Of a stretch of DNA of 22,248 nt, positions 1,056 through 18,808 are shown one piece after another (position 1 is the stretch's first letter; the number at the start of each line of letters is the position of its first letter). This DNA is from a virus (taxonomy: Duplodnaviria > Heunggongvirae > Uroviricota > Caudoviricetes), in the IMG/VR virus record IMGVR_UViG_2778261418_000019, positions 1-22,248 of that record. One strand, 5' to 3'. Both the position numbers and the translations under genes were made by a program. Under the pieces are notes generated by a model. That model had not been told where the DNA came from, made no database searches, and was given only the letters and a program-made list of their open reading frames with translations.

Positions 1056-1094
1056 TTAACACTACTAGTACATTTTCGGTACTAGTAGTGTTAA
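1056..1094. repeat. perfect 16-bp inverted repeat (TTAACACTACTAGTAC / GTACTAGTAGTGTTAA) with a 7-nt loop
   Basis: Directly verified: 1056-1071 is the exact reverse complement of 1079-1094; loop ATTTTCG. No T-run follows on either strand. Confidence 0.7.
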
Positions 1095-1106
1095 TATGGA
1101 CACTCT

Positions 1107-1208
1107 ATGAAAAAATTAACCTTTACTTACCTTGCGGCTGCAAATTTCTTTTTCTTCATTGCTGGGATCTTTACATGCGTATTAGTTGTATTGCTGGTGG
1201 ACTTATAA
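1107..1208 (+). CDS. putative 33-aa hydrophobic peptide (MKKLTFTYLAAANFFFFIAGIFTCVLVVLLVDL)
   Basis: ATG 1107 about 13 nt after the 16-bp hairpin; KK followed by an uninterrupted hydrophobic stretch; no clear SD. Alternative frame to the ORF-track ORF 1088-1372. Confidence 0.2.
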   Translation: MKKLTFTYLAAANFFFFIAGIFTCVLVVLLVDL

Positions 1209-1252
1209 CCGAAGTTTTCGACGATCACGACCGAAAGGTAGGGGCGGTCACT

Positions 1253-1372
1253 ATGTCTAAGCATCCCCTACACATCAATAAGCCTTTTAGTGATGGTAAG
1301 ACGTGGCACACTACCTATAACGAAGCACTATTGAACTTACTAACTAGAAAACGCGTGAACATTAAGCTATGA
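1253..1372 (+). CDS. hypothetical small protein (39 aa from ATG 1253; the same frame is open back to GTG 1088 and ATG 1175)
   Basis: ORF-track frame 1088-1372. The GTG start lies inside the hairpin arm, so an internal ATG is more plausible. Its stop overlaps the next start (ATGA at 1369-1372), suggesting translational coupling. Confidence 0.25.
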   Translation: MSKHPLHINKPFSDGKTWHTTYNEALLNLLTRKRVNIKL

Positions 1373-1590
1373 ATGATCTTAATGATCTAAACGTGCTCTA
1401 TATAGATACAGTACGAAAACTTACCGAAGAAGATCTACTACGTGATTTTGGTCTTACAAGTGAGATGATAAACACTTTGAAGGAGATCCCACTTGCAAAT
1501 ATAGGTAAACTAACCGAATGTACTCAGTTACTGTTAAAATCAAACGAGGCTGTACTATGGGAAGCATTAAAAGCATTACCGCAAAGATGA
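1369..1590 (+). CDS. hypothetical protein (73 aa)
   Basis: ORF track; ATG overlaps the upstream stop; no recognisable motif. Confidence 0.5.
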   Translation: MNDLNDLNVLYIDTVRKLTEEDLLRDFGLTSEMINTLKEIPLANIGKLTECTQLLLKSNEAVLWEALKALPQR

Positions 1591-2240
1591 TCAGTACGAT
1601 TCTTAATGATGATTTTCATGTAGGTATGTTGACTGCCGACGCAACAGGCCGCAATGCACTGGCAAACGTCAACGAAGAAGATATAGATACACTTATTCAA
1701 CGCCTGGAAGAAGTGAAAGACTATGTTAGTACACTTCGTACCGAGCGTATAAACGAAGCTAAGAAACTATTAGAATCACTTGTACAAGAGTCTGGTAGCT
1801 TCTCTAGTGTAGAGGAACTGCTTTCTACACTTGCCGTATCTTCTCCTGCTTCCATACCACAAAAAGCATCGAAGCCAAACGGCAATAAAATATTCGAAGT
1901 AGTCATAGTTGATAGCAAGAAGGACGAAAGAAGATCCTATAATGTAATCAATAAGAAGTTACCAGCGGCATTACTCAAGGATGAAGTATACATTCAGTTG
2001 GTTAAGAAGAATCCCGAACTATCAGACGTTGACGAGTTTTTACGGGCGTATAGTGAGGACTATCGCAAAAAATACCCGCTTAATGCGAAGTGGAACGGTC
2101 ATGAGTTCCATCTAAACCAGAAAGGGAAGATGAACGCGAAAGCACAGGAATACTACGCCGAGTACAAGAAGCAGTACCCCAAACAGGCCGACGAGCAAGA
2201 CTTCAAAGAGCTTGTTACTAAAGCCTATAAGGTAGCATAA
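1557..2240 (+). CDS. hypothetical protein, about 227 aa, with predicted coiled-coil N-terminal half and basic Lys/Tyr-rich C-terminus
   Basis: ORF track frame 1518-2240. ATG 1557 has GAGG 7 nt upstream, whereas 1518 is deep inside the preceding ORF. Followed by an 11-bp-stem hairpin. Confidence 0.55.
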   Translation: MGSIKSITAKMISTILNDDFHVGMLTADATGRNALANVNEEDIDTLIQRLEEVKDYVSTLRTERINEAKKLLESLVQESGSFSSVEELLSTLAVSSPASIPQKASKPNGNKIFEVVIVDSKKDERRSYNVINKKLPAALLKDEVYIQLVKKNPELSDVDEFLRAYSEDYRKKYPLNAKWNGHEFHLNQKGKMNAKAQEYYAEYKKQYPKQADEQDFKELVTKAYKVA

Positions 2241-2248
2241 GAAGAATA

Positions 2249-2279
2249 ATAGCTACTACACAGATAAAGTAGTAGCTAT
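2249..2279 (+). terminator. stem-loop (ATAGCTACTAC / GTAGTAGCTAT, 9-nt loop), possible terminator with weak U-tract
   Basis: Perfect 11-bp inverted repeat directly after the stop at 2240. Confidence 0.35.
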
Positions 2280-2348
2280 TACTAAATATCATAGCTATAA
2301 TAATTCACATCAAGCATCACTCCACACAATCACTAAAAGGAATTACTA

Positions 2349-2729
2349 ATGAAGCATCTCTTTGCCCTAGCTGTACTTGCTACTGCTACAATCACTACTG
2401 GCTGCACTACTACAATGCCTGCATTTATGAATGAAGCTGTAGTAGGTGATATTAACGGTCGTACACTAGTATTATTCCCCGTAAATGGTGGCAAAGAGTA
2501 TCGCCCACAATTCAGTAGTGATTGTCAGCCAATGCTATTAGGTGAAGAACGCCCATCTACTGGTAACTGTATTATTGCCGCCGCCCGCCTTACAAACATT
2601 CATAGCTACACCGAACATAAAGCCCACGGCCCCCACAAAAACACCACTAAGATAGTTGATCGTTCAAATAATTACGGTACAGAATTTGAGTTATCGAAAC
2701 CAACTAATTATATAGGCGATAATCTGTGA
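2349..2729 (+). CDS. predicted secreted protein or lipoprotein (126 aa; signal peptide ending ...ATITTG-C)
   Basis: AAAGGAA RBS 8 nt upstream; hydrophobic N-terminus MKHLFALAVLATATITTGC with Cys right after the h-region (relaxed lipobox); five Cys in the mature part. Confidence 0.6.
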   Translation: MKHLFALAVLATATITTGCTTTMPAFMNEAVVGDINGRTLVLFPVNGGKEYRPQFSSDCQPMLLGEERPSTGNCIIAAARLTNIHSYTEHKAHGPHKNTTKIVDRSNNYGTEFELSKPTNYIGDNL

Positions 2730-2818
2730 TGAAGAAAACAATATTTGCCGTACTTTTAGTTATGGGGACTGCATATTACTATGATATAATAAAATATATT
2801 AATCCCACTTATTAAATT
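2729..2818 (+). CDS. putative 29-aa membrane peptide (MKKTIFAVLLVMGTAYYYDIIKYINPTY)
   Basis: ATG overlaps the upstream stop (TGATG at 2727-2731); KK then hydrophobic stretch. Below the ORF-track cut-off. Confidence 0.25.
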
Positions 2819-2908
2819 GCAGTCGCCGTAATCAAAAACACTGTCATTATCTGGCATCAATAATGCCATTGATTCTGATAAAGTAGATAATCCCGAATGG
2901 ATGAATTT

Positions 2909-3289
2909 ATGAAAAAGATTGTACTGTCTGCATTACTGTTAGTAGCCCCTTCGGTACTGGCAGTAAATGTAATACTCCCTGATGATGGTCTGTATCGTTG
3001 CGGTGTTGAATCGTGGGAACAGGTAGGAAAGCGAGTAGTAAAGACTGGTTATTATGGTATGACTGGTTATGTGAGTATTGATAACCGTGCTGTTAGTGTG
3101 AAGTTTAGGGATGTGAATATTTCATTCAGCCCTGTTTCAAAACTTAAAAGCGGTCGCCTGATGGCCTATGCCGTAGATACTGACCAGTACGATATTATTA
3201 TTAGTGCAATCAATGGTAAAACACAGTATATGGTCAGCAATGAGAATAATCCCGTATTTTTGAACTTCTCCAATTGTATTATTGAATAA
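2909..3289 (+). CDS. secreted protein, paralog 1 (signal peptide MKKIVLSALLLVAPSVLA; ORF-track start is 2897)
   Basis: Signal peptide nearly identical to that of ORF 3299-3685; conserved LPxxGLYxC after the cleavage site and NC(I/V) near the C-terminus. Confidence 0.6.
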   Translation: MKKIVLSALLLVAPSVLAVNVILPDDGLYRCGVESWEQVGKRVVKTGYYGMTGYVSIDNRAVSVKFRDVNISFSPVSKLKSGRLMAYAVDTDQYDIIISAINGKTQYMVSNENNPVFLNFSNCIIE

Positions 3290-3298
3290 GGAATAGAA

Positions 3299-3685
3299 AT
3301 GAAAAAGGTTATCGTATCTGCATTACTGTTAGTAGCTCCTTCGGTACTGGCTAACACTCACTCTCTACCAGAGCAGGGATTGTATCAATGTGATGTGAAA
3401 GTAGTTGAAATGCTGGGTGATACTCCAGTAGAAAAATCTTCTTATTCTGGTGCAGGTCACGCTAAAGTTAATAGTGATGGTTTTATCCTTAACTTCGGTG
3501 CAATGACTCACGCCACCGGACCAATAGAATCTAATGATTCAATGACAATGGCTTATGATAATGATAGGCAGCGATACTTCCTTGCAACAATGGGTAGTAA
3601 AGAGCAAAACGATATTACTTTTATCTTCTCATTGAGATCTGATACTCGTAATTACTACTTTCAAAACTGCGTTAAAATAAAATAA
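3299..3685 (+). CDS. secreted protein, paralog 2 (signal peptide MKKVIVSALLLVAPSVLA)
   Basis: AAGGAA RBS 6 nt upstream; tandem paralog of 2909-3289; mature domain diverged. Confidence 0.6.
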   Translation: MKKVIVSALLLVAPSVLANTHSLPEQGLYQCDVKVVEMLGDTPVEKSSYSGAGHAKVNSDGFILNFGAMTHATGPIESNDSMTMAYDNDRQRYFLATMGSKEQNDITFIFSLRSDTRNYYFQNCVKIK

Positions 3686-3696
3686 GGGATATATAT

Positions 3697-3906
3697 ATGT
3701 CAGAGAAACTAATTAAAGCAATCCGTAATATTACGGAATATAATATGAGTATTGAGCGTATCATTGTTAGTACCGAAGACCAGCAACACTATTATAGTAT
3801 TAATCCTTATAAGGAAACTGTAATAAAGGTAGCAGACCAATACGGCAAACCAATTGAAGGAGAAGTAGAAATACCACAAATACCGCCATTATTCGATACT
3901 AACTAA
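3697..3906 (+). CDS. hypothetical protein (69 aa)
   Basis: AAGGGA RBS 8 nt upstream; followed by a strong terminator. Confidence 0.5.
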   Translation: MSEKLIKAIRNITEYNMSIERIIVSTEDQQHYYSINPYKETVIKVADQYGKPIEGEVEIPQIPPLFDTN

Positions 3907-3912
3907 TAATAT

Positions 3913-3943
3913 AGCCCACTAATAAAAGTGGGCTTTTTTATTC
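3913..3943 (+). terminator. rho-independent terminator (AGCCCACT-AATAAA-AGTGGGCT + TTTTTTATT)
   Basis: Perfect 8-bp stem, 6-nt loop, then T6. Stem core resembles the hairpin at 303-325. Confidence 0.7.
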
Positions 3944-3984
3944 CTGCCTAAATACTCCTATACATGCAATAGGAGTATCCCACC

Positions 3985-4371
3985 ATGAATACAATCTACC
4001 TACACTTCCCTGATGGAACGTATAAGGCCATAGAAAGCACCACAGGCCGACAGGAATCAGGATACATACCATCACGCAAGGATAAGCTAATAACCGCTCA
4101 TATCATCACACAGGACGGTTACGAGCTATTCATAGATACCTATACACTAACGCTTAAGTATAAATACATTACATTAAACTACTCACGCTTCACCATAGGC
4201 CGTACTAATTACCCTATCAATGCACTAGATACATTCAGCGGTAGTGAGCTACCACACTTAACCCGACTAAGGGAACTACGCGACGAGATCTTACAGTACC
4301 GTACCGTAGATGGTCTGCCTATCTCTTATCGTTGTGATGTAATCGTTAGTAATATGGTGATACTCAAGTAG
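3985..4371 (+). CDS. hypothetical protein (128 aa)
   Basis: ORF track; AGGAG about 11 nt upstream; no recognisable motif. Confidence 0.5.
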   Translation: MNTIYLHFPDGTYKAIESTTGRQESGYIPSRKDKLITAHIITQDGYELFIDTYTLTLKYKYITLNYSRFTIGRTNYPINALDTFSGSELPHLTRLRELRDEILQYRTVDGLPISYRCDVIVSNMVILK

Positions 4372-7059: not shown

Positions 7060-7551
7060 ATGGCAATAGTTCGCAAAGTAACCCTAAGAGGCGATATCTT
7101 TAAAGGCGAGACTATTACATTCGATTACCCCGCAGGGTCAGAAGTAGACTTGATTGATCCAAACGGGGTAAAGACCTCATATACATATCCCTTCCCAGAT
7201 ATTGATACTAGTAACTGGGTAGCGGGTGTATGGACTGCAATTATTAACAGTACCGTAGCATATGGTGTACAACAATTCGAAGTAATAGATCCAACTTCTA
7301 AAGCGTCAGAATATAACGACCTGATGCAAATCATCAAAGATATTGATCAAATCATCATGGATAGAATTAAAGGCGGTGGTGTACTAAGTCAATCAATCCA
7401 AAATAAATCATTAACATATGAAAGTAGCGAAATACTTATGAAACTACGCCCTGTATATGTCAGTCGTGCAAATGATTTACTTTCGGATATGAAAGGCTTC
7501 AATACTGGATGTCCTATCAAATCAATTACTACATTTAGGAGATCTAGATAA
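7060..7551 (+). CDS. hypothetical protein between terminase and portal (about 163 aa from ATG 7060)
   Basis: ORF track frame 7030-7551; ATG 7060 has AAGGAAA upstream, whereas 7030 lies inside the terminase gene. Function unknown. Confidence 0.5.
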   Translation: MAIVRKVTLRGDIFKGETITFDYPAGSEVDLIDPNGVKTSYTYPFPDIDTSNWVAGVWTAIINSTVAYGVQQFEVIDPTSKASEYNDLMQIIKDIDQIIMDRIKGGGVLSQSIQNKSLTYESSEILMKLRPVYVSRANDLLSDMKGFNTGCPIKSITTFRRSR

Positions 7552-9047
7552 TGTTCGGATGGAATAAAAAGAAAGTAGAAGAACCTAAACAAAAAGTTTT
7601 AGTACAGAAGCCAGTGAAGCTAATGAAGAATAACCCAATGAAACGAGCAATGACTTCCCTGAATTTGGGATCATCTAGCCCTGTTATCTCATTTGGCTTC
7701 ACTGGTGGTAATCAGGCTGGCAATATTAACGCCATCATTAACCGTACACTACCCGTAATGGTAGCCGTTAGTCGTGAACTATCAATCAAGAACGGTATTG
7801 TAAAAAAATATGTTAGTACGAATAGTGCAGGTGTAACGGGTGCAGATGGCCTATATATTCGCCCTTGTACGCATAGCTCCGACGACGAACAGGTTAACCA
7901 GTCAATCGATAAACAGATTGAAGATGCGTTTTACACGTGGGCCGAAGATCCTAAAGCGTTTTCCCGCTGCGGTACTCTAGATATCAGTACCTTCCAACGT
8001 CTGGTAGAACGTACTCGATCAGTAGATGGTGATTGTTTCATTCGCGTTCACAGTAAGCCAGGAGAGCTACCACAGATTGAGATTATCGATTCTATGCGTA
8101 TCTCGACCTATGAGAACCAATTACTACCAAGTGGTAACTATATTAGTAATGGTATTGAATTTGATATTAATACTAACCGACCTGTAGCTTATTGGGTAAC
8201 ACGTTATAACCCCATCATGTACAACTATATGATTGGTGAGCGTGAACGAGTACCAGCCGACGAGATCCTACACCTATTTCAGCAGGACTATCCAACACAG
8301 CAACGCGGTATTCCAGATGTGCATTCCGGTACTGAAAAGTTAAAAGAGTTAGAGGAATTTATGTCGGCGGCAATTACTTCCCGAAAGGTTGCAGCGTCCG
8401 CAATGGCCTTTATTACTAACCCTGATAGTGATGACGTACAGCTACTGACTGATGATAGTGTATCGTACTATGATCAGGACTATCTAAATCCGGCTGCAAT
8501 CGTAGAACTACAGGCAGGTCAGGATATTAAAACAGTAAACCCAACACAGACTACCGATGGTATACAAGAGTTTATTGATAACCAAATGATGATGATTGCA
8601 ATGGGATTAGATATTACAAAACAATCTCTAACTTCTGATACTAGTAATGCTTCATTCAGTGCTGCAAAGTTAACTGATAAATTACAGCAATCAACATTTA
8701 AAAGCCGTACTAATGCTTTAATTGTATCCGTACTGAAACCTCTTTATATTGCATGGCTAAAATCTGCAATGCTAAATAATAGTACATTAAGCAATTTAAA
8801 TTTTAGTGATTTTAATAAATTAACTCATGCACAATATGTACAGACGCGTCAAATCTCCCTAGATCCATATAAAGACCTTCAAACCGAAGTATTAGCAATT
8901 GATAACGGTTTAAAGAGTAAGGCAATGGTAATTTCGGAGATGGGATACGATCCGGTTATTGTCATGGAAGAAATCAACAAGGAAAATAAAGAAAATGGAA
9001 TTGAACAAGAACCAGACGAGGGCGATCAATCTAACGCAGATCAATAA
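7551..9047 (+). CDS. portal protein
   Basis: 498 aa, immediately after the terminase genes and before the protease/capsid ORF; AGGAG 9 nt upstream; ATG overlaps the upstream stop (TAATG). Confidence 0.75.
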   Translation: MFGWNKKKVEEPKQKVLVQKPVKLMKNNPMKRAMTSLNLGSSSPVISFGFTGGNQAGNINAIINRTLPVMVAVSRELSIKNGIVKKYVSTNSAGVTGADGLYIRPCTHSSDDEQVNQSIDKQIEDAFYTWAEDPKAFSRCGTLDISTFQRLVERTRSVDGDCFIRVHSKPGELPQIEIIDSMRISTYENQLLPSGNYISNGIEFDINTNRPVAYWVTRYNPIMYNYMIGERERVPADEILHLFQQDYPTQQRGIPDVHSGTEKLKELEEFMSAAITSRKVAASAMAFITNPDSDDVQLLTDDSVSYYDQDYLNPAAIVELQAGQDIKTVNPTQTTDGIQEFIDNQMMMIAMGLDITKQSLTSDTSNASFSAAKLTDKLQQSTFKSRTNALIVSVLKPLYIAWLKSAMLNNSTLSNLNFSDFNKLTHAQYVQTRQISLDPYKDLQTEVLAIDNGLKSKAMVISEMGYDPVIVMEEINKENKENGIEQEPDEGDQSNADQ

Positions 9048-10857
9048 TGCAATTGATGAAAACGATAGAACTGTAGAACTCTCTTTTGCCTCCGAAATTC
9101 CAGTAGTACGCGATATTAAAGGGACTCTCTATAATGAGATCCTTTTATGCAGTCCTGAAAACGTAGATTTAAGCCGTCTAAATGACGGTGCACCTGTACT
9201 AGTAGAACATGATGCAATGCGTCAAGTTGGTATAGTTGAAAATGCTCGCGTAGATATGGATAAAGTATGTCGTGCTACTGTACGTTTTAGTGCTTTGGGT
9301 ACTGCAAATACTATCTTCGGAATGATCGTAGAAGGTATTCGCCCTAAAGTATCAGTAGGTTATAACATCCTAGATTACTATCTAGATGGTAATGATCTAA
9401 TCGTTTCCAAATGGCAACCATACGAAGTATCAAGCGTATCCACTCCCGCAGATAATAGCGTAGGTGTAGGAAGATCACTAAATAGTAATGATGAAATTAC
9501 TTTAGAGGATCAACCCCAAATGGAACCAGAACAAAAAGAAGAACTAGTACAGGAAGTAAAAATTATTGAAAAAGCACCACAAGAAGAAGTGCAATCAGAA
9601 GTAGTTGAAGAATCCGTAGTAGTCGAAAGTGAAGAATCAGTAGAAGTAGTAGAAGTTGAAGTAATCGAGGAAGTACAAGAAGATGTACAACCGGAATTAG
9701 TAGAAGAACGTTCTATTGCAGTAACTGATATTCAAGAAAGTATAAATAAAGAAGTAGAAGCAAATCGTATTCGCGAACTTCAATCTATTTCTTCGGTACT
9801 AGGTGTTAGTACCGAAGAAGCAATTAAAAACGGTGTAAGCGTAGAAGACTTTAAACGCTCACTACTAAATAAAGATAACAAATCAATTGATAAGGAAATC
9901 AAACAAATGGATAAAAAATCTCTAATCGCCGAAGGTCTACGTAGTCTAAAAGGCGAAGCAAACGAACTAGCAACCTTCGAAAAAGGTACACGCGGTTATA
10001 ATGCAGATCTTAATGCTATGGTACGTTCTACTGCCGATACCACTTCTACCGTCACTGCCGCAGGTCTTGTAAAAGAAGAATTAGCAGATGCCTATATTCG
10101 CCAACTACTTGCACGTACCGTACTAGGTGAACTACCAGTTACCGTCTTTGGTGGTCTTGCTGGTCGTGGTAATTTCTCTATCCCACGTGCAAAAGGTATG
10201 AACCCAGTAGCACGTTTCTATGGTGAAGATGAAGCAGTATCCGATGGCTTCGAAACCTTCGATAAGATCACTCTAAAGCCTCGCATGTTCGCAGCAGGTA
10301 TCAAGATCACTAAAGCAATGCTACTAAGCAACGCAGCTACCGAACGTTATGTAACTGATGAGCTACTACGCCAATGTTCTAACGGTCTAGAATCAGCAGT
10401 ATTTACACAAATCGCTAATACCGTTCCAGTACAGGAAACCGCAGCAGTAGGTACAGTAACCGAAGCAGACGTACAGAAAGCAATTGAGGCACTAGGTGTA
10501 GCAAACGTTGATATCAACCGTTGTGTTGCAATCGTCCACCCTTCTATGCTCGCTAAACTACGTCAGTATGCAATTTTGGGTAACACCAGTGCAGTAAGTG
10601 CTGTAGCAGGCCATCGCTATGATATGTGGTTGTGTGACGAAGTACGCGTAATTGAATCTACTTTCGTAGCAGCAGATGCAATTCTAATTGGTGACTTCTC
10701 CGAACTAATCTTTACTAACTGGAACGAAGGCCAAGAGCTGGATTTCGACGATACTACCTACCGTGCAGCACAAACTATCGCAATCCGTAGCTTCCAGTAC
10801 CTTGATGTAGCTATTGCACACGAAGAATCATTCGTACAAATCAAACTAAAAGCATAA
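8959..10857 (+). CDS. prohead protease - acidic scaffold-like linker - major capsid protein (HK97-type) encoded as one ORF
   Basis: N-terminal third matches the HK97 prohead protease pattern (RTVELSFASE..., VLVEHD); aa about 190-250 is an E/V-rich acidic low-complexity stretch; the C-terminal roughly 380 aa looks like an HK97-fold capsid protein. Internal in-frame ATG at 9520 with AGAGGA upstream. The 5' end overlaps the portal gene (alternative ATG at 8995). Confidence 0.7.
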   Translation: MSWKKSTRKIKKMELNKNQTRAINLTQINNAIDENDRTVELSFASEIPVVRDIKGTLYNEILLCSPENVDLSRLNDGAPVLVEHDAMRQVGIVENARVDMDKVCRATVRFSALGTANTIFGMIVEGIRPKVSVGYNILDYYLDGNDLIVSKWQPYEVSSVSTPADNSVGVGRSLNSNDEITLEDQPQMEPEQKEELVQEVKIIEKAPQEEVQSEVVEESVVVESEESVEVVEVEVIEEVQEDVQPELVEERSIAVTDIQESINKEVEANRIRELQSISSVLGVSTEEAIKNGVSVEDFKRSLLNKDNKSIDKEIKQMDKKSLIAEGLRSLKGEANELATFEKGTRGYNADLNAMVRSTADTTSTVTAAGLVKEELADAYIRQLLARTVLGELPVTVFGGLAGRGNFSIPRAKGMNPVARFYGEDEAVSDGFETFDKITLKPRMFAAGIKITKAMLLSNAATERYVTDELLRQCSNGLESAVFTQIANTVPVQETAAVGTVTEADVQKAIEALGVANVDINRCVAIVHPSMLAKLRQYAILGNTSAVSAVAGHRYDMWLCDEVRVIESTFVAADAILIGDFSELIFTNWNEGQELDFDDTTYRAAQTIAIRSFQYLDVAIAHEESFVQIKLKA

Positions 10858-11599: not shown

Positions 11600-15334
<3,735 letters not shown>

Positions 15335-15394: not shown

Positions 15395-15853
15395 ATGGCT
15401 ATGTCTATTATGACTGGTGCTAACCTAAAAGTAGAGTTAGGCACTTATACCGCTGGTAGCTCTACCGCTGCCGCAGATTTTCAAGAAATCCCAGAAGTGG
15501 CAGCATTCGCTACTAGTGGTTTTGAATCTACTGTTATTGATGTTGTTACTTACAACTCTGCTTATAATCGCAAGCTACTAGGAACAAAATCCGTGCCTGA
15601 TTGTGAACTAACTGTTAACTATCTAGCAGATAACGCAGTACACCAAAAGTTAGAACAACTTGCAGATGATCAGGTACGTACTCAGGTTAAAATCACCTAC
15701 TACGAAAACGCAACCCGTACAACTGGCTTCTTCGTAATCTACAATGCTTTCGTATCTTCAAACTTGATCGCAGGTAGTAAAGACGAAGTAGTGACTAAGG
15801 CATTTACACTAGCTGTAGATGGTGGTCCAATCCAATCCGGTATTAATGCTTAA
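15395..15853 (+). CDS. major tail (tube) protein
   Basis: 152 aa, AAGGAAA RBS, directly upstream of the chaperone pair and tape measure gene; followed by a strong terminator. Confidence 0.65.
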   Translation: MAMSIMTGANLKVELGTYTAGSSTAAADFQEIPEVAAFATSGFESTVIDVVTYNSAYNRKLLGTKSVPDCELTVNYLADNAVHQKLEQLADDQVRTQVKITYYENATRTTGFFVIYNAFVSSNLIAGSKDEVVTKAFTLAVDGGPIQSGINA

Positions 15854-15915: not shown

Positions 15916-16992
<1,077 letters not shown>

Positions 16993-17038: not shown

Positions 17039-18808
17039 ATGGGACTGAATATCGAAGAGTATGCAAAGTTTGTTAATCAACCAAATGGTGGTATACAGGC
17101 AACATTACATTTAATGGATGCAATGAAAAAGGCAAATATACCAATTGCACAACAGACTTTTGCACTTGAAGCTATTGCTAGTGATGCAAGTAAACTCAGT
17201 ACCGTGTATCGTGAATTGGGAAGTGGTCAGGCAGTATTAAACGATATAGCTAATCAAACTGTTTCAGTTACTGAAAATATGGCCGATGAATATGCAAGGT
17301 TTGATAAGAACCTACAGAACGCAACTGATTCAGGTCAGGTATTATTGATGGAATTTATGTATCCAGTAGTAAGAGAGATGAATGCATTATGGGACTGGTT
17401 TAATAAAGGTTGGGGAACATCTGACTTTATGAAGGCAGTTGATAAACTCAATAAAAAAGGTATTACACCTTCGGGTATGTCATCCAGTCAAGTAACATCA
17501 TTAGGGAAGAATAGTGATGTCTCAGCAGCAGGAAAGGCAAATGATGACGTAGCCTATAACAAAACAGTTGATAACTTCCTAGCGGCAAATAAGAAAGCTG
17601 GTGATCTTGCATTCAAACAACGTGTAGAAAGTCAAAAACGTTTTGATAAGATCCGTAAAGAAGAAGAAGATAAAGCAAAGGCAGCACGCGATAAAGCAGC
17701 CCGACAAGCAGCCTCGGCAGCGGCTAAAGCCAAGGCATTACGTGAGAAAGAAGCTAAAGAACGAATTGCAGCACAACAATCATTAGATAAAATCTTAGTA
17801 GACCAAACTATCGGTACTAATGAACGTCAATTAGCAGAGTTTGACCGTCAACAAAAAGAAATAGTAGAAACTATCAAAAAGAGTGCAAAGACACTAGGAC
17901 TATCAGACGAGAAACTACGCCAGCTATTAAATGATCAAGTTACAGCAGGTGCAGCAGGACGTTTAAAAATTATTAATGATATGTTGGGCTTTAGTGATCC
18001 AAATCAGACTATCAATGATCAGAACGCTCTATTAGCTAGTGGACAAGTTGGGGCCGCAGGTCAAGCCTTTATTGGTAATCAACTAGACCAACAGTTAGGA
18101 CTAGATACTACCTCCTATGATATGGAAGCAATGAATAAAGAACGTGATGCACTATTGAAGCAGAACGAACTATTAATTCAGGATAAGGAATCATTCGAAA
18201 AGCGTAAAGCGGCAATTACTGCCAAATATGCACAACGTGCCGTAGAAATACAGCACCAAGAAACTATGCAATTACTAGAAGGTACTGAATCTGCTTTTAC
18301 ACAAATTGGGAACGGTATGGCGGCGGCATTTGGTGAGTCTAGCGGGGCAGCACAGGCAGCATTTGCAGTACAGAAGGGTATCACCATTAGTATGACCATC
18401 ATGAAGATACAAGAGGCTCTAGCGGGTGCATTGGCTCTAGGTTTTCCACAGAACATCCCAGCTTACGCACAGATTGCAGCTATGGGTATGTCTATCATTA
18501 GTACAGCTAAGGGTGCAAGTGCTGGTCAATTCCATGGTGGCGTAGATGAACTAGATTCATCAATGGATAACAAATCTTTTGTACTAAAAGCAGGTGAACG
18601 CGTAGTACAACCAGAAGCTAACAAAAAGCTAACTAACTTTCTAGATAATCAGGAAAAAGGCGGCGGTACTATGGGCGGTGATACTATTATCAATGCCCCA
18701 TTATATGTATATGGTAGTGATGATGATAAACAATTCCAAGAAAAATTGAAGAAACATCAAAACAGTATTGTACAGGCGGTGCGTGATTCACAGAAACGTA
18801 ACTCATAA
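17039..18808 (+). CDS. tape measure protein, main body (589 aa from first ATG; frame open upstream to 16976)
   Basis: Long coiled-coil-rich ORF with KAA/QAA repeats; C-terminal FHGG...FVLKAGERVV resembles the lambda gpH C-terminal region; no convincing RBS before ATG 17039. Confidence 0.7.
   Translation: MGLNIEEYAKFVNQPNGGIQATLHLMDAMKKANIPIAQQTFALEAIASDASKLSTVYRELGSGQAVLNDIANQTVSVTENMADEYARFDKNLQNATDSGQVLLMEFMYPVVREMNALWDWFNKGWGTSDFMKAVDKLNKKGITPSGMSSSQVTSLGKNSDVSAAGKANDDVAYNKTVDNFLAANKKAGDLAFKQRVESQKRFDKIRKEEEDKAKAARDKAARQAASAAAKAKALREKEAKERIAAQQSLDKILVDQTIGTNERQLAEFDRQQKEIVETIKKSAKTLGLSDEKLRQLLNDQVTAGAAGRLKIINDMLGFSDPNQTINDQNALLASGQVGAAGQAFIGNQLDQQLGLDTTSYDMEAMNKERDALLKQNELLIQDKESFEKRKAAITAKYAQRAVEIQHQETMQLLEGTESAFTQIGNGMAAAFGESSGAAQAAFAVQKGITISMTIMKIQEALAGALALGFPQNIPAYAQIAAMGMSIISTAKGASAGQFHGGVDELDSSMDNKSFVLKAGERVVQPEANKKLTNFLDNQEKGGGTMGGDTIINAPLYVYGSDDDKQFQEKLKKHQNSIVQAVRDSQKRNS

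Follow-up and report, generated by a model that had tools for sequence, protein, structure and literature searches.

How does a phage deliver a maturation protease into its procapsid when the protease and the major capsid protein share one reading frame? We addressed this question for a 22,248-nt stretch of Caudoviricetes DNA (IMG/VR virus record IMGVR_UViG_2778261418_000019, positions 1 to 22,248; the whole stretch is called the window below), in which a 632-codon frame on the plus strand (8959-10857) opens with TTG and has no internal stop according to both the open reading frame (ORF) listing and inspection of the sequence. An initial annotation, made from the letters alone, had read this frame as a prohead protease, an acidic linker and a capsid protein in one gene, with a possible second product from an internal start. 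Our overall reading, to which we give a rough probability of 0.7, is that of a nested two-product, self-processing head-maturation gene. That the gene yields a self-processing protease-linker-delta-capsid polyprotein we consider very likely. The polyprotein gene would be the head-maturation module, in a single frame, of an enterobacterial siphovirus-type prophage of ~33 kb.

The fused frame and its start codon

The unbroken frame from 8959 to 10857 stands as initially annotated, but its start does not. The real start is most likely ATG 8995 rather than TTG 8959, giving a protein of 620 amino acids (aa), whose numbering is used below. The equivalent ATG is the RefSeq/PGAP start in a 97% identical Escherichia coli prophage (L001), and close homologues (more than 100, at 73-99% identity) have lengths of 590-621 aa. 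In addition, Met1 and Arg9 are kept across a 112-sequence alignment of distant relatives, and phrog_617 covers the 620-aa protein end to end (E 6e-89). The first 53 nt from ATG 8995 overlap the end of the portal gene (stop 9047), in another frame. An overlap of the portal and polyprotein genes, of ~47-56 nt, is retained in Salmonella, Citrobacter and other Escherichia relatives, and coupling of translation to the low-abundance portal could hold the full-length product scarce.

In order to see how common the fused layout is, we searched the protease domain (aa 1-175) with phmmer against 1.84 billion cluster representatives (50% identity clusters) at E<=1e-3, which matched 5076 cluster representatives. 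Among the best 150 of these 5076 matches, 111 were 540-700 aa long with the protease domain at the N-terminus. Fused-ORF loci were confirmed in species-representative genomes in 519 cases, and 80 of these were fetched. The view that such a fusion is unusual was therefore not borne out, as the family is large and curators have already named it: the architecture is held in NCBIfam NF045541, in PHROGs 4523 and 617, and in the actinophage annotation scheme. The window gene is a rather diverged member of this known layout, and a family-wide nested start is the sole part that may be new.

A long frame of this kind could also be an assembly or sequencing artefact, in which separate protease and capsid genes were joined by a missed stop or a frameshift near 9400-9600. 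One relative would seem to speak for this: in L092 (3001-4872, GCA_030736455.1) an in-frame TAA within the linker has led to two gene calls, one for a 'protease' of 221 aa and one for a capsid protein of 389 aa with a GTG start. However, the two halves share one frame, and the TAA comes after the conserved internal methionine described below, as expected of a nonsense mutation in a decaying prophage, which it probably is. The frame is moreover open in the more than 100 close homologues, which come from separately assembled Escherichia, Shigella, Citrobacter and Salmonella genomes, as well as in the 111 distant cluster representatives, the 80 fetched loci and cultured phages. Since the ORF is uninterrupted across hundreds of independent assemblies, a missed stop or frameshift is excluded for practical purposes, and we leave the artefact a negligible probability. 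Judged by this conservation, the fusion of protease and capsid protein is real and is not rare. We also sought a naturally split gene in order to compare its split point with the internal methionine; the sole candidate was L092, which with its in-frame linker stop is uninformative.

The N-terminal prohead protease

The similarity of the N-terminal region to prohead proteases, claimed in the initial annotation, is not seen with the direct family models. PF04586 (Peptidase_S78) reaches 16.1 bits on the window protein (E 0.013, under the 21-bit cut-off) and TIGR01543 reaches 19.4 bits (under the 59-bit cut-off); an hhalign comparison with HK97 gp4 is likewise statistically weak (E 0.04). These values weigh against a protease assignment. 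As the direct models stay below threshold, the test for similarity needed more sensitive methods, and these do find it. An AlphaFold model of the protease domain, built from a 94-sequence alignment, has a predicted local distance difference test (pLDDT) score of 85.5, and its matches in BFVD are dozens of models named 'prohead protease', so that the N-terminal domain shows the assemblin / phage prohead protease fold. Two curated families that combine both functions also align with the window protein: NCBIfam NF045541 ('prohead protease/major capsid protein fusion protein') over aa 20-301 with E 2.7e-36, and phrog_4523 ('major head and protease protein') with E 6e-41. Most of the distant full-length relatives from the profile search carry precomputed PF04586 and PF05065.

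Neither His72 nor Ser120 varies among 112 diverse relatives (22-56% identity) or within the 94-sequence alignment. In the hhalign comparison His72 falls on His65 of HK97 gp4 and Ser120 on Ser114, which Duda, Oh and Hendrix (2013) reportedly identified as the gp4 catalytic residues. The other residues of the domain that are invariant in the 112 relatives are Glu48, Leu50, Gly79, Tyr123, Glu144, Asp153 and Arg160. Taken together, the fold model, the invariant His72 and Ser120, transitive homology and the PF04586-carrying relatives support the reading of aa 1-165 as an HK97-type (assemblin-fold) prohead protease, with predicted proteolytic activity.

A domain of this fold might instead be kept only as a scaffold or spacer, with any processing done by another enzyme. 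The scores under the curated PF04586 and TIGR01543 thresholds would agree with such a dead protease. However, His72, Ser120 and the seven further residues are invariant among relatives as distant as 22% identity, His72 and Ser120 occupy the catalytic positions of HK97 gp4, and neither the head module nor the rest of the annotated prophage showed a further protease gene. We regard a dead protease as very improbable.

The capsid protein, the delta-like segment and the predicted cleavage site

The C-terminal part gave clear results with the direct models, in agreement with the capsid-like region initially annotated, for which a profile search against the HK97 capsid family had been proposed as a check. 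Pfam Phage_capsid (PF05065) matches aa 358-617 at E 5e-16, with 59.3 bits versus a cut-off of 24.2 bits, and TIGR01554 reaches 60.8 bits versus 27.5. As a single sequence, aa 362-613 match 8GTA, the capsid protein of roseophage R4C, at E 3e-6. When the family profile was compared with solved structures, 8GTA was found at E 3e-75, and further hits at E 1e-18 to 1e-24 were HK97 gp5, the RcGTA capsid protein and ~25 more solved structures of the HK97 capsid fold. An hhalign comparison with HK97 gp5 alone has a probability of 97% and spans the capsid core only. By these family and structure-profile matches, aa 345-620 is an HK97-fold major capsid protein.

Between the two enzymatic and structural parts lie a linker and a delta-like segment. 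The Glu/Val-rich low-complexity linker of roughly 60 aa noted initially is confirmed as 65 residues (aa 176-240, 9520-9714) with 23 Glu, 16 Val and a net charge of -20. It contains one short repeat only (9 nt, twice), and its length shifts by indels even between E. coli strains. For the following segment, aa 241-344, the family profile suggests a delta-type domain: residues 7-378 of 3qpr_A (gp5 with delta) align to profile positions 238-605, versus the capsid core alone in the gp5-only comparison. Helices in aa 241-344 are also drawn by a single-sequence AlphaFold2 model, at pLDDT below 55 (33 for the whole model), and carry no weight.

Arg344 is present in 104 of the 112 sequences, ~10 residues ahead of the N-arm motif GG-LV. 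HK97 gp5 is cleaved at Lys103|Ser104, and because of this analogy we predict maturation cleavage at Arg344|Ser345, within NAMVR|STADTT, which would leave a capsid protein of 276 aa; we would give even odds to this exact position. In R4C the corresponding cut is predicted ahead of Ser353. That the mature capsid protein corresponds to the C-terminal part of the precursor only is supported by analogy with the solved relative R4C. The 268-residue chain in PDB 8GTA (R4C T=7 virion capsid) is exactly residues 362-629 of the 629-aa R4C protein, so the mature R4C shell, at least as modelled, is without the N-terminal ~361 residues. Two points weigh against too strong a use of this analogy: the limits of the 8GTA chain may reflect the extent modelled by the authors rather than a measured N-terminus, and the R4C structure (PMC10276861) and genome (PMC6836515) papers are silent on protease or cleavage.

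A probable internal start after the protease domain

The initial annotation had pointed to an in-frame ATG at 9520 with an upstream AGAGGA as a second possible start. Both are there, and both are conserved: Met176 is found in all close homologues (73-99% identity), amid hypervariable and indel-rich surroundings, and GAGGA or AAGGA lies 10-13 nt upstream of the internal ATG in 9 enterobacterial loci. Equivalents are nearly universal in the wider family. In order to extend the comparison to distant loci, we used 77 of the 80 fetched loci, in which the end of the protease domain was located by motif. An in-frame ATG follows the domain by 3-45 codons in 73 of the 77 loci and lies at codons 47-59 in the other four. 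The raw Met frequency of the linkers (2.6%) is not elevated. What stands out is that the linkers have very nearly one Met each and that this Met bears a Shine-Dalgarno (SD) sequence; the linkers are otherwise nearly free of Met (0.36%), and loci with one Met or more are in excess (binomial p 5e-9).

The SD signal was compared in two ways. Within the same linkers, the mean anti-SD duplex upstream of the linker ATGs is -5.9 kcal/mol versus -2.6 kcal/mol at non-ATG codons, and a duplex of -5 kcal/mol or stronger is found at 77% of linker ATGs versus 20% of other codons. In a first pass on 67 loci, the linker ATGs had a mean of -5.5 kcal/mol versus -2.4 kcal/mol at other internal ATGs (Mann-Whitney p 2e-20), of which 17% reached -5 kcal/mol or stronger. 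An SD core with a spacer of 4-10 nt accompanies 83% of linker ATGs versus 5.5% of control ATGs, with spacers peaking at 6-10 nt. In 47 of the 67 loci the internal SD surpasses the upstream one in strength (Wilcoxon p 9e-5), a comparison that is only suggestive given that the upstream start was chosen heuristically.

The conserved Met176 and the SD-bearing ATGs across the family together imply a nested product, as in lambda C/Nu3, and we consider that the start at ATG 9520 is probably used. The simplest reading is that an HK97 gp5-type gene kept its ribosome-binding site while the upstream protease gene lost its stop codon, which would give nested products. Some observations weigh against this. 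Enterobacterial members of the family separate the internal SD from its ATG by a long spacer of 10-13 nt, and their duplex energies of -5.4 to -5.8 kcal/mol are only moderate and do not exceed that of the annotated start. Purine-rich acidic linkers yield SD-like strings by their composition, which the within-linker control addresses and does not remove. Lastly, the conservation of the site is observed, and from it we infer its use.

Some of these points would fit a single-product polyprotein, in which only the 620-aa protein is made, each subunit carries its own protease (415 per T=7 shell) and the internal Met and SD are not a start. The SD at the annotated start is of similar strength to the internal one (-5.4 versus -5.8 kcal/mol in the enterobacterial clade), databases and annotators treat the gene as one product, and by our rough estimate 415 copies with 344 extra residues each would still fit a T=7 procapsid. 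What a single product leaves unexplained is an ATG after the protease domain in ~95% of the 77 distant loci when the linkers are otherwise 0.36% Met, an SD spacing that peaks at 6-10 nt like that of genuine ribosome-binding sites, and a Met176 that is invariant inside a hypervariable linker. We consider a single product unlikely, and keep the nested reading.

It is a more tentative matter, on which our confidence falls somewhat short of even, whether the internal ribosome-binding site and ATG are near-universal and functional across the family of more than 5000 clusters, so that fusions of this type would be two-product nested genes in general and previously undescribed as such. Within a limited literature search we found no paper on an internal start in protease-capsid fusions, which gives weak support to 'not described'.

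A second in-frame ATG lies at 9907-9909 (Met305, in the delta-like segment) with an upstream SD-like AAGGAA (-6.2 kcal/mol). It is not conserved family-wide, and the SD-like site is probably a by-product of Lys and Glu codons.

Proposed maturation pathway

The findings above suggest the following scheme for the nested two-product gene. Translation from ATG 8995 would give the 620-aa full-length protein of 68 kDa, and translation from the internal SD and ATG at 9504-9522 a 445-aa precursor of ~49 kDa without protease, in a ratio that we can only predict. Both products would co-assemble on the portal via their common delta and capsid parts. Since the full-length product would co-assemble by its capsid part, the covalent link would bring protease domains, in sub-stoichiometric amounts, inside the procapsid, and this tether would stand in for the C-terminal targeting peptide of the free HK97 gp4. 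The enclosed protease would then cut off itself, the tether and the delta segment (aa 1-344), with the last cut predicted after Arg344. The remaining mature capsid protein of ~276 aa would expand during DNA packaging.

The conserved internal start suggests that protease delivery into the procapsid could be limited by tethering to few capsid subunits. If this is true, a minority full-length product tethers the protease, the majority capsid precursor comes from the internal start, and the relative strength of the two initiation sites sets the protease dosage. The nesting principle known from lambda C/Nu3 and herpesvirus UL26/UL26.5 would then reach the capsid gene itself.

There are also practical consequences for annotation. 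Pfam and NCBI recognize the capsid part alone in the enterobacterial prophage clade, which is why the proteins are named 'phage major capsid protein', so that the maturation protease is seemingly absent; it corresponds to the first 165 residues. Published phages call for the same correction, an example being the 629-aa precursor of roseophage R4C. Gene callers and capsid-protein phylogenies would best handle the three segments separately, and those who express such genes for particles should expect two primary products and self-cleavage. The features of the gene are collected in Table 1.

Table 1 Features of the polyprotein gene and of the adjoining portal gene. Positions are those of the window. 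Column Basis denotes the evidence used for the assignment.
Feature	Position	Strand	Basis
Longest ORF as mechanically listed	8959..10857	+	TTG start, 632 codons plus stop
Probable true coding sequence, 620-aa protease-linker-delta-capsid polyprotein	8995..10857	+	PGAP start in L001, homologue lengths, N-terminal conservation, phrog_617
Prohead serine protease domain, aa 1-165, assemblin / HK97 gp4-like fold	8995..9489	+	
His72 codon, predicted catalytic histidine	9208..9210	+	Invariant in 112 sequences; aligns with HK97 gp4 His65
Ser120 codon, predicted catalytic serine, VSVGY motif	9352..9354	+	Invariant in 112 sequences; aligns with HK97 gp4 Ser114
AGAGGA, Shine-Dalgarno-like site, 10-nt spacer	9504..9509	+	Anti-SD duplex -5.8 kcal/mol; GAGGA/AAGGA in 9 relatives
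Internal in-frame ATG (Met176), predicted start of 445-aa linker-delta-capsid product without protease	9520..9522	+	
Acidic Glu/Val-rich low-complexity linker, aa 176-240, hypervariable length	9520..9714	+	Composition, indels among relatives
Delta/scaffold-like segment, aa 241-344, ending at Arg344	9715..10026	+	Family-profile alignment to HK97 gp5 with delta
Predicted mature HK97-fold major capsid protein, aa 345-620, ~30 kDa	10027..10854	+	PF05065, 8GTA, TIGR01554
Lambda-family portal gene, immediately upstream	7551..9047	+	PF05136, E 3.5e-61

Prophage context and other features of the window

The window is the late region of the ~33-kb prophage. L001, a closely related complete genome, has its prophage inserted in E. 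coli yegD, adjoining a serine recombinase gene. The head genes of the window follow the order small terminase, gpA-type large terminase, head-tail joining protein, lambda-family portal and polyprotein gene; downstream of the latter come an FII-like connector, a tube-fibre fusion, the tail tube, a tail assembly chaperone, the tape measure and distal tail proteins. The GC content is 35-44% over the whole of 1-22248, and that of the E. coli host, ~51%, is far above this value. The element is present in 2 of 5426 complete E. coli genomes, and close relatives of the capsid gene (73-99% identity) occur in Escherichia, Shigella, Citrobacter, Salmonella and Enterobacter. A blastn search against phage genomes gave no relatives at the nucleotide level.

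Upstream of the terminase genes, 1088-4371 holds a series of small ORFs (73-240 aa) that are annotated solely as hypothetical proteins in the RefSeq relative. Among the tail genes, the first ~140 aa of the 1244-aa 'tail fibre' protein (11600-15334) are paralogous to the 152-aa major tail (tube) protein of the neighbouring gene (15395-15853); the two domains share 32% identity (E 8e-21) and both match phrog_158. This shared domain makes the 1244-aa protein a tube-domain/fibre fusion, positioned before the tube gene, and its fibres could be displayed from a tube-like ring. Actinophage clusters with a capsid-protease fusion also carry a duplicated major tail protein (Giantsbane preprint). The tape measure is divided between two ORFs that differ in frame and lie 46 nt apart: 16600-16992 (130 aa, phrog_13674 positions 1-137) and 17039-18808 (589 aa, positions 156-756). 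L001 is annotated with the same division, which may reflect a pseudogene with a frameshift, a programmed event or a tape measure that truly consists of two parts.

Comparison with known systems

The domain order of the window gene, in one ORF, is that of NF045541, PHROG 4523, PHROG 617 and the JGI label 'HK97 family phage major capsid protein/HK97 family phage prohead protease'. The window protein scores 125 bits against NF045541, versus a narrow cut-off of 525 bits, and is thus a relative of that model rather than a member. In actinophage annotation a protease-scaffold-capsid fusion in a single gene is a standard label, and here the likeness is one of layout. The prophage fusions of Paracoccus join a ClpP (S14) protease to a Mu gpT-type capsid protein (PMC6536676), and are therefore an independent fusion event.

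A relative with a solved capsid is the roseophage vB_DshS-R4C; other cultured members of the family are ECO1230-10, ep3, VP882, phiHAP-1 and PPpW-3. The R4C gene 006 (L083 5455-7344, MK882925), annotated as 'major capsid protein', encodes a 629-aa homologue with the same layout at ~30% identity, and the neighbourhood is shared as well: small and large terminase, head-tail joining protein and portal, then the fused capsid gene. The R4C linker is Pro/Ala-rich, whereas that of the window gene is Glu/Val-rich. The internal Met189 of R4C carries GGAGGacgcaATG (GGAGG, -9.5 kcal/mol), the strongest SD of the R4C gene.

Compared with HK97, the window gene has the protease fold and catalytic His/Ser positions of gp4 and the HK97-fold C-terminal part of gp5, whose delta domain aligns with the middle segment through the family profile. 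The internal SD and ATG stand where a gp5-type gene would begin. Unlike in HK97, there is no stop between protease and capsid protein, and an acidic linker of ~65 aa is inserted. HK97 gp4 (225 aa) has a C-terminal targeting tail of ~60 aa, whereas the protease of the window ends near aa 165 and is tethered covalently. The portal and terminase of the window are lambda-type (PF05136, gpA), not HK97-type.

The nested lambda C/Nu3 arrangement, to which the gene was compared initially, is matched in part. An in-frame start with a ribosome-binding site follows the protease domain in both, but the protease here is of the HK97 gp4/assemblin fold and the shared part includes the capsid protein. Lambda C is an S49/ClpP-like protease, of another family than the window protease. 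A Pfam scan at E<=10 gave no S49-type family, lambda C and S49 sequences or models not being part of a direct comparison. The window gene would appear to work like C/Nu3 but does not look homologous to lambda C. In lambda C/Nu3, herpes simplex virus 1 (HSV-1) UL26/UL26.5 and HFTV1 gp17/gp17.5, an in-frame internal start gives an abundant shorter product that shares its C-terminus with the rarer full-length protease, and for the archaeal virus HFTV1 the nested start was shown by initiation profiling (bioRxiv 10.64898/2026.09.13.751334). Internal initiation is thus described for these three, whereas for the window gene we infer it from sequence. In lambda, HSV-1 and HFTV1 the shared C-terminal part is a separate scaffold; in the window gene it is the delta segment together with the capsid protein itself.

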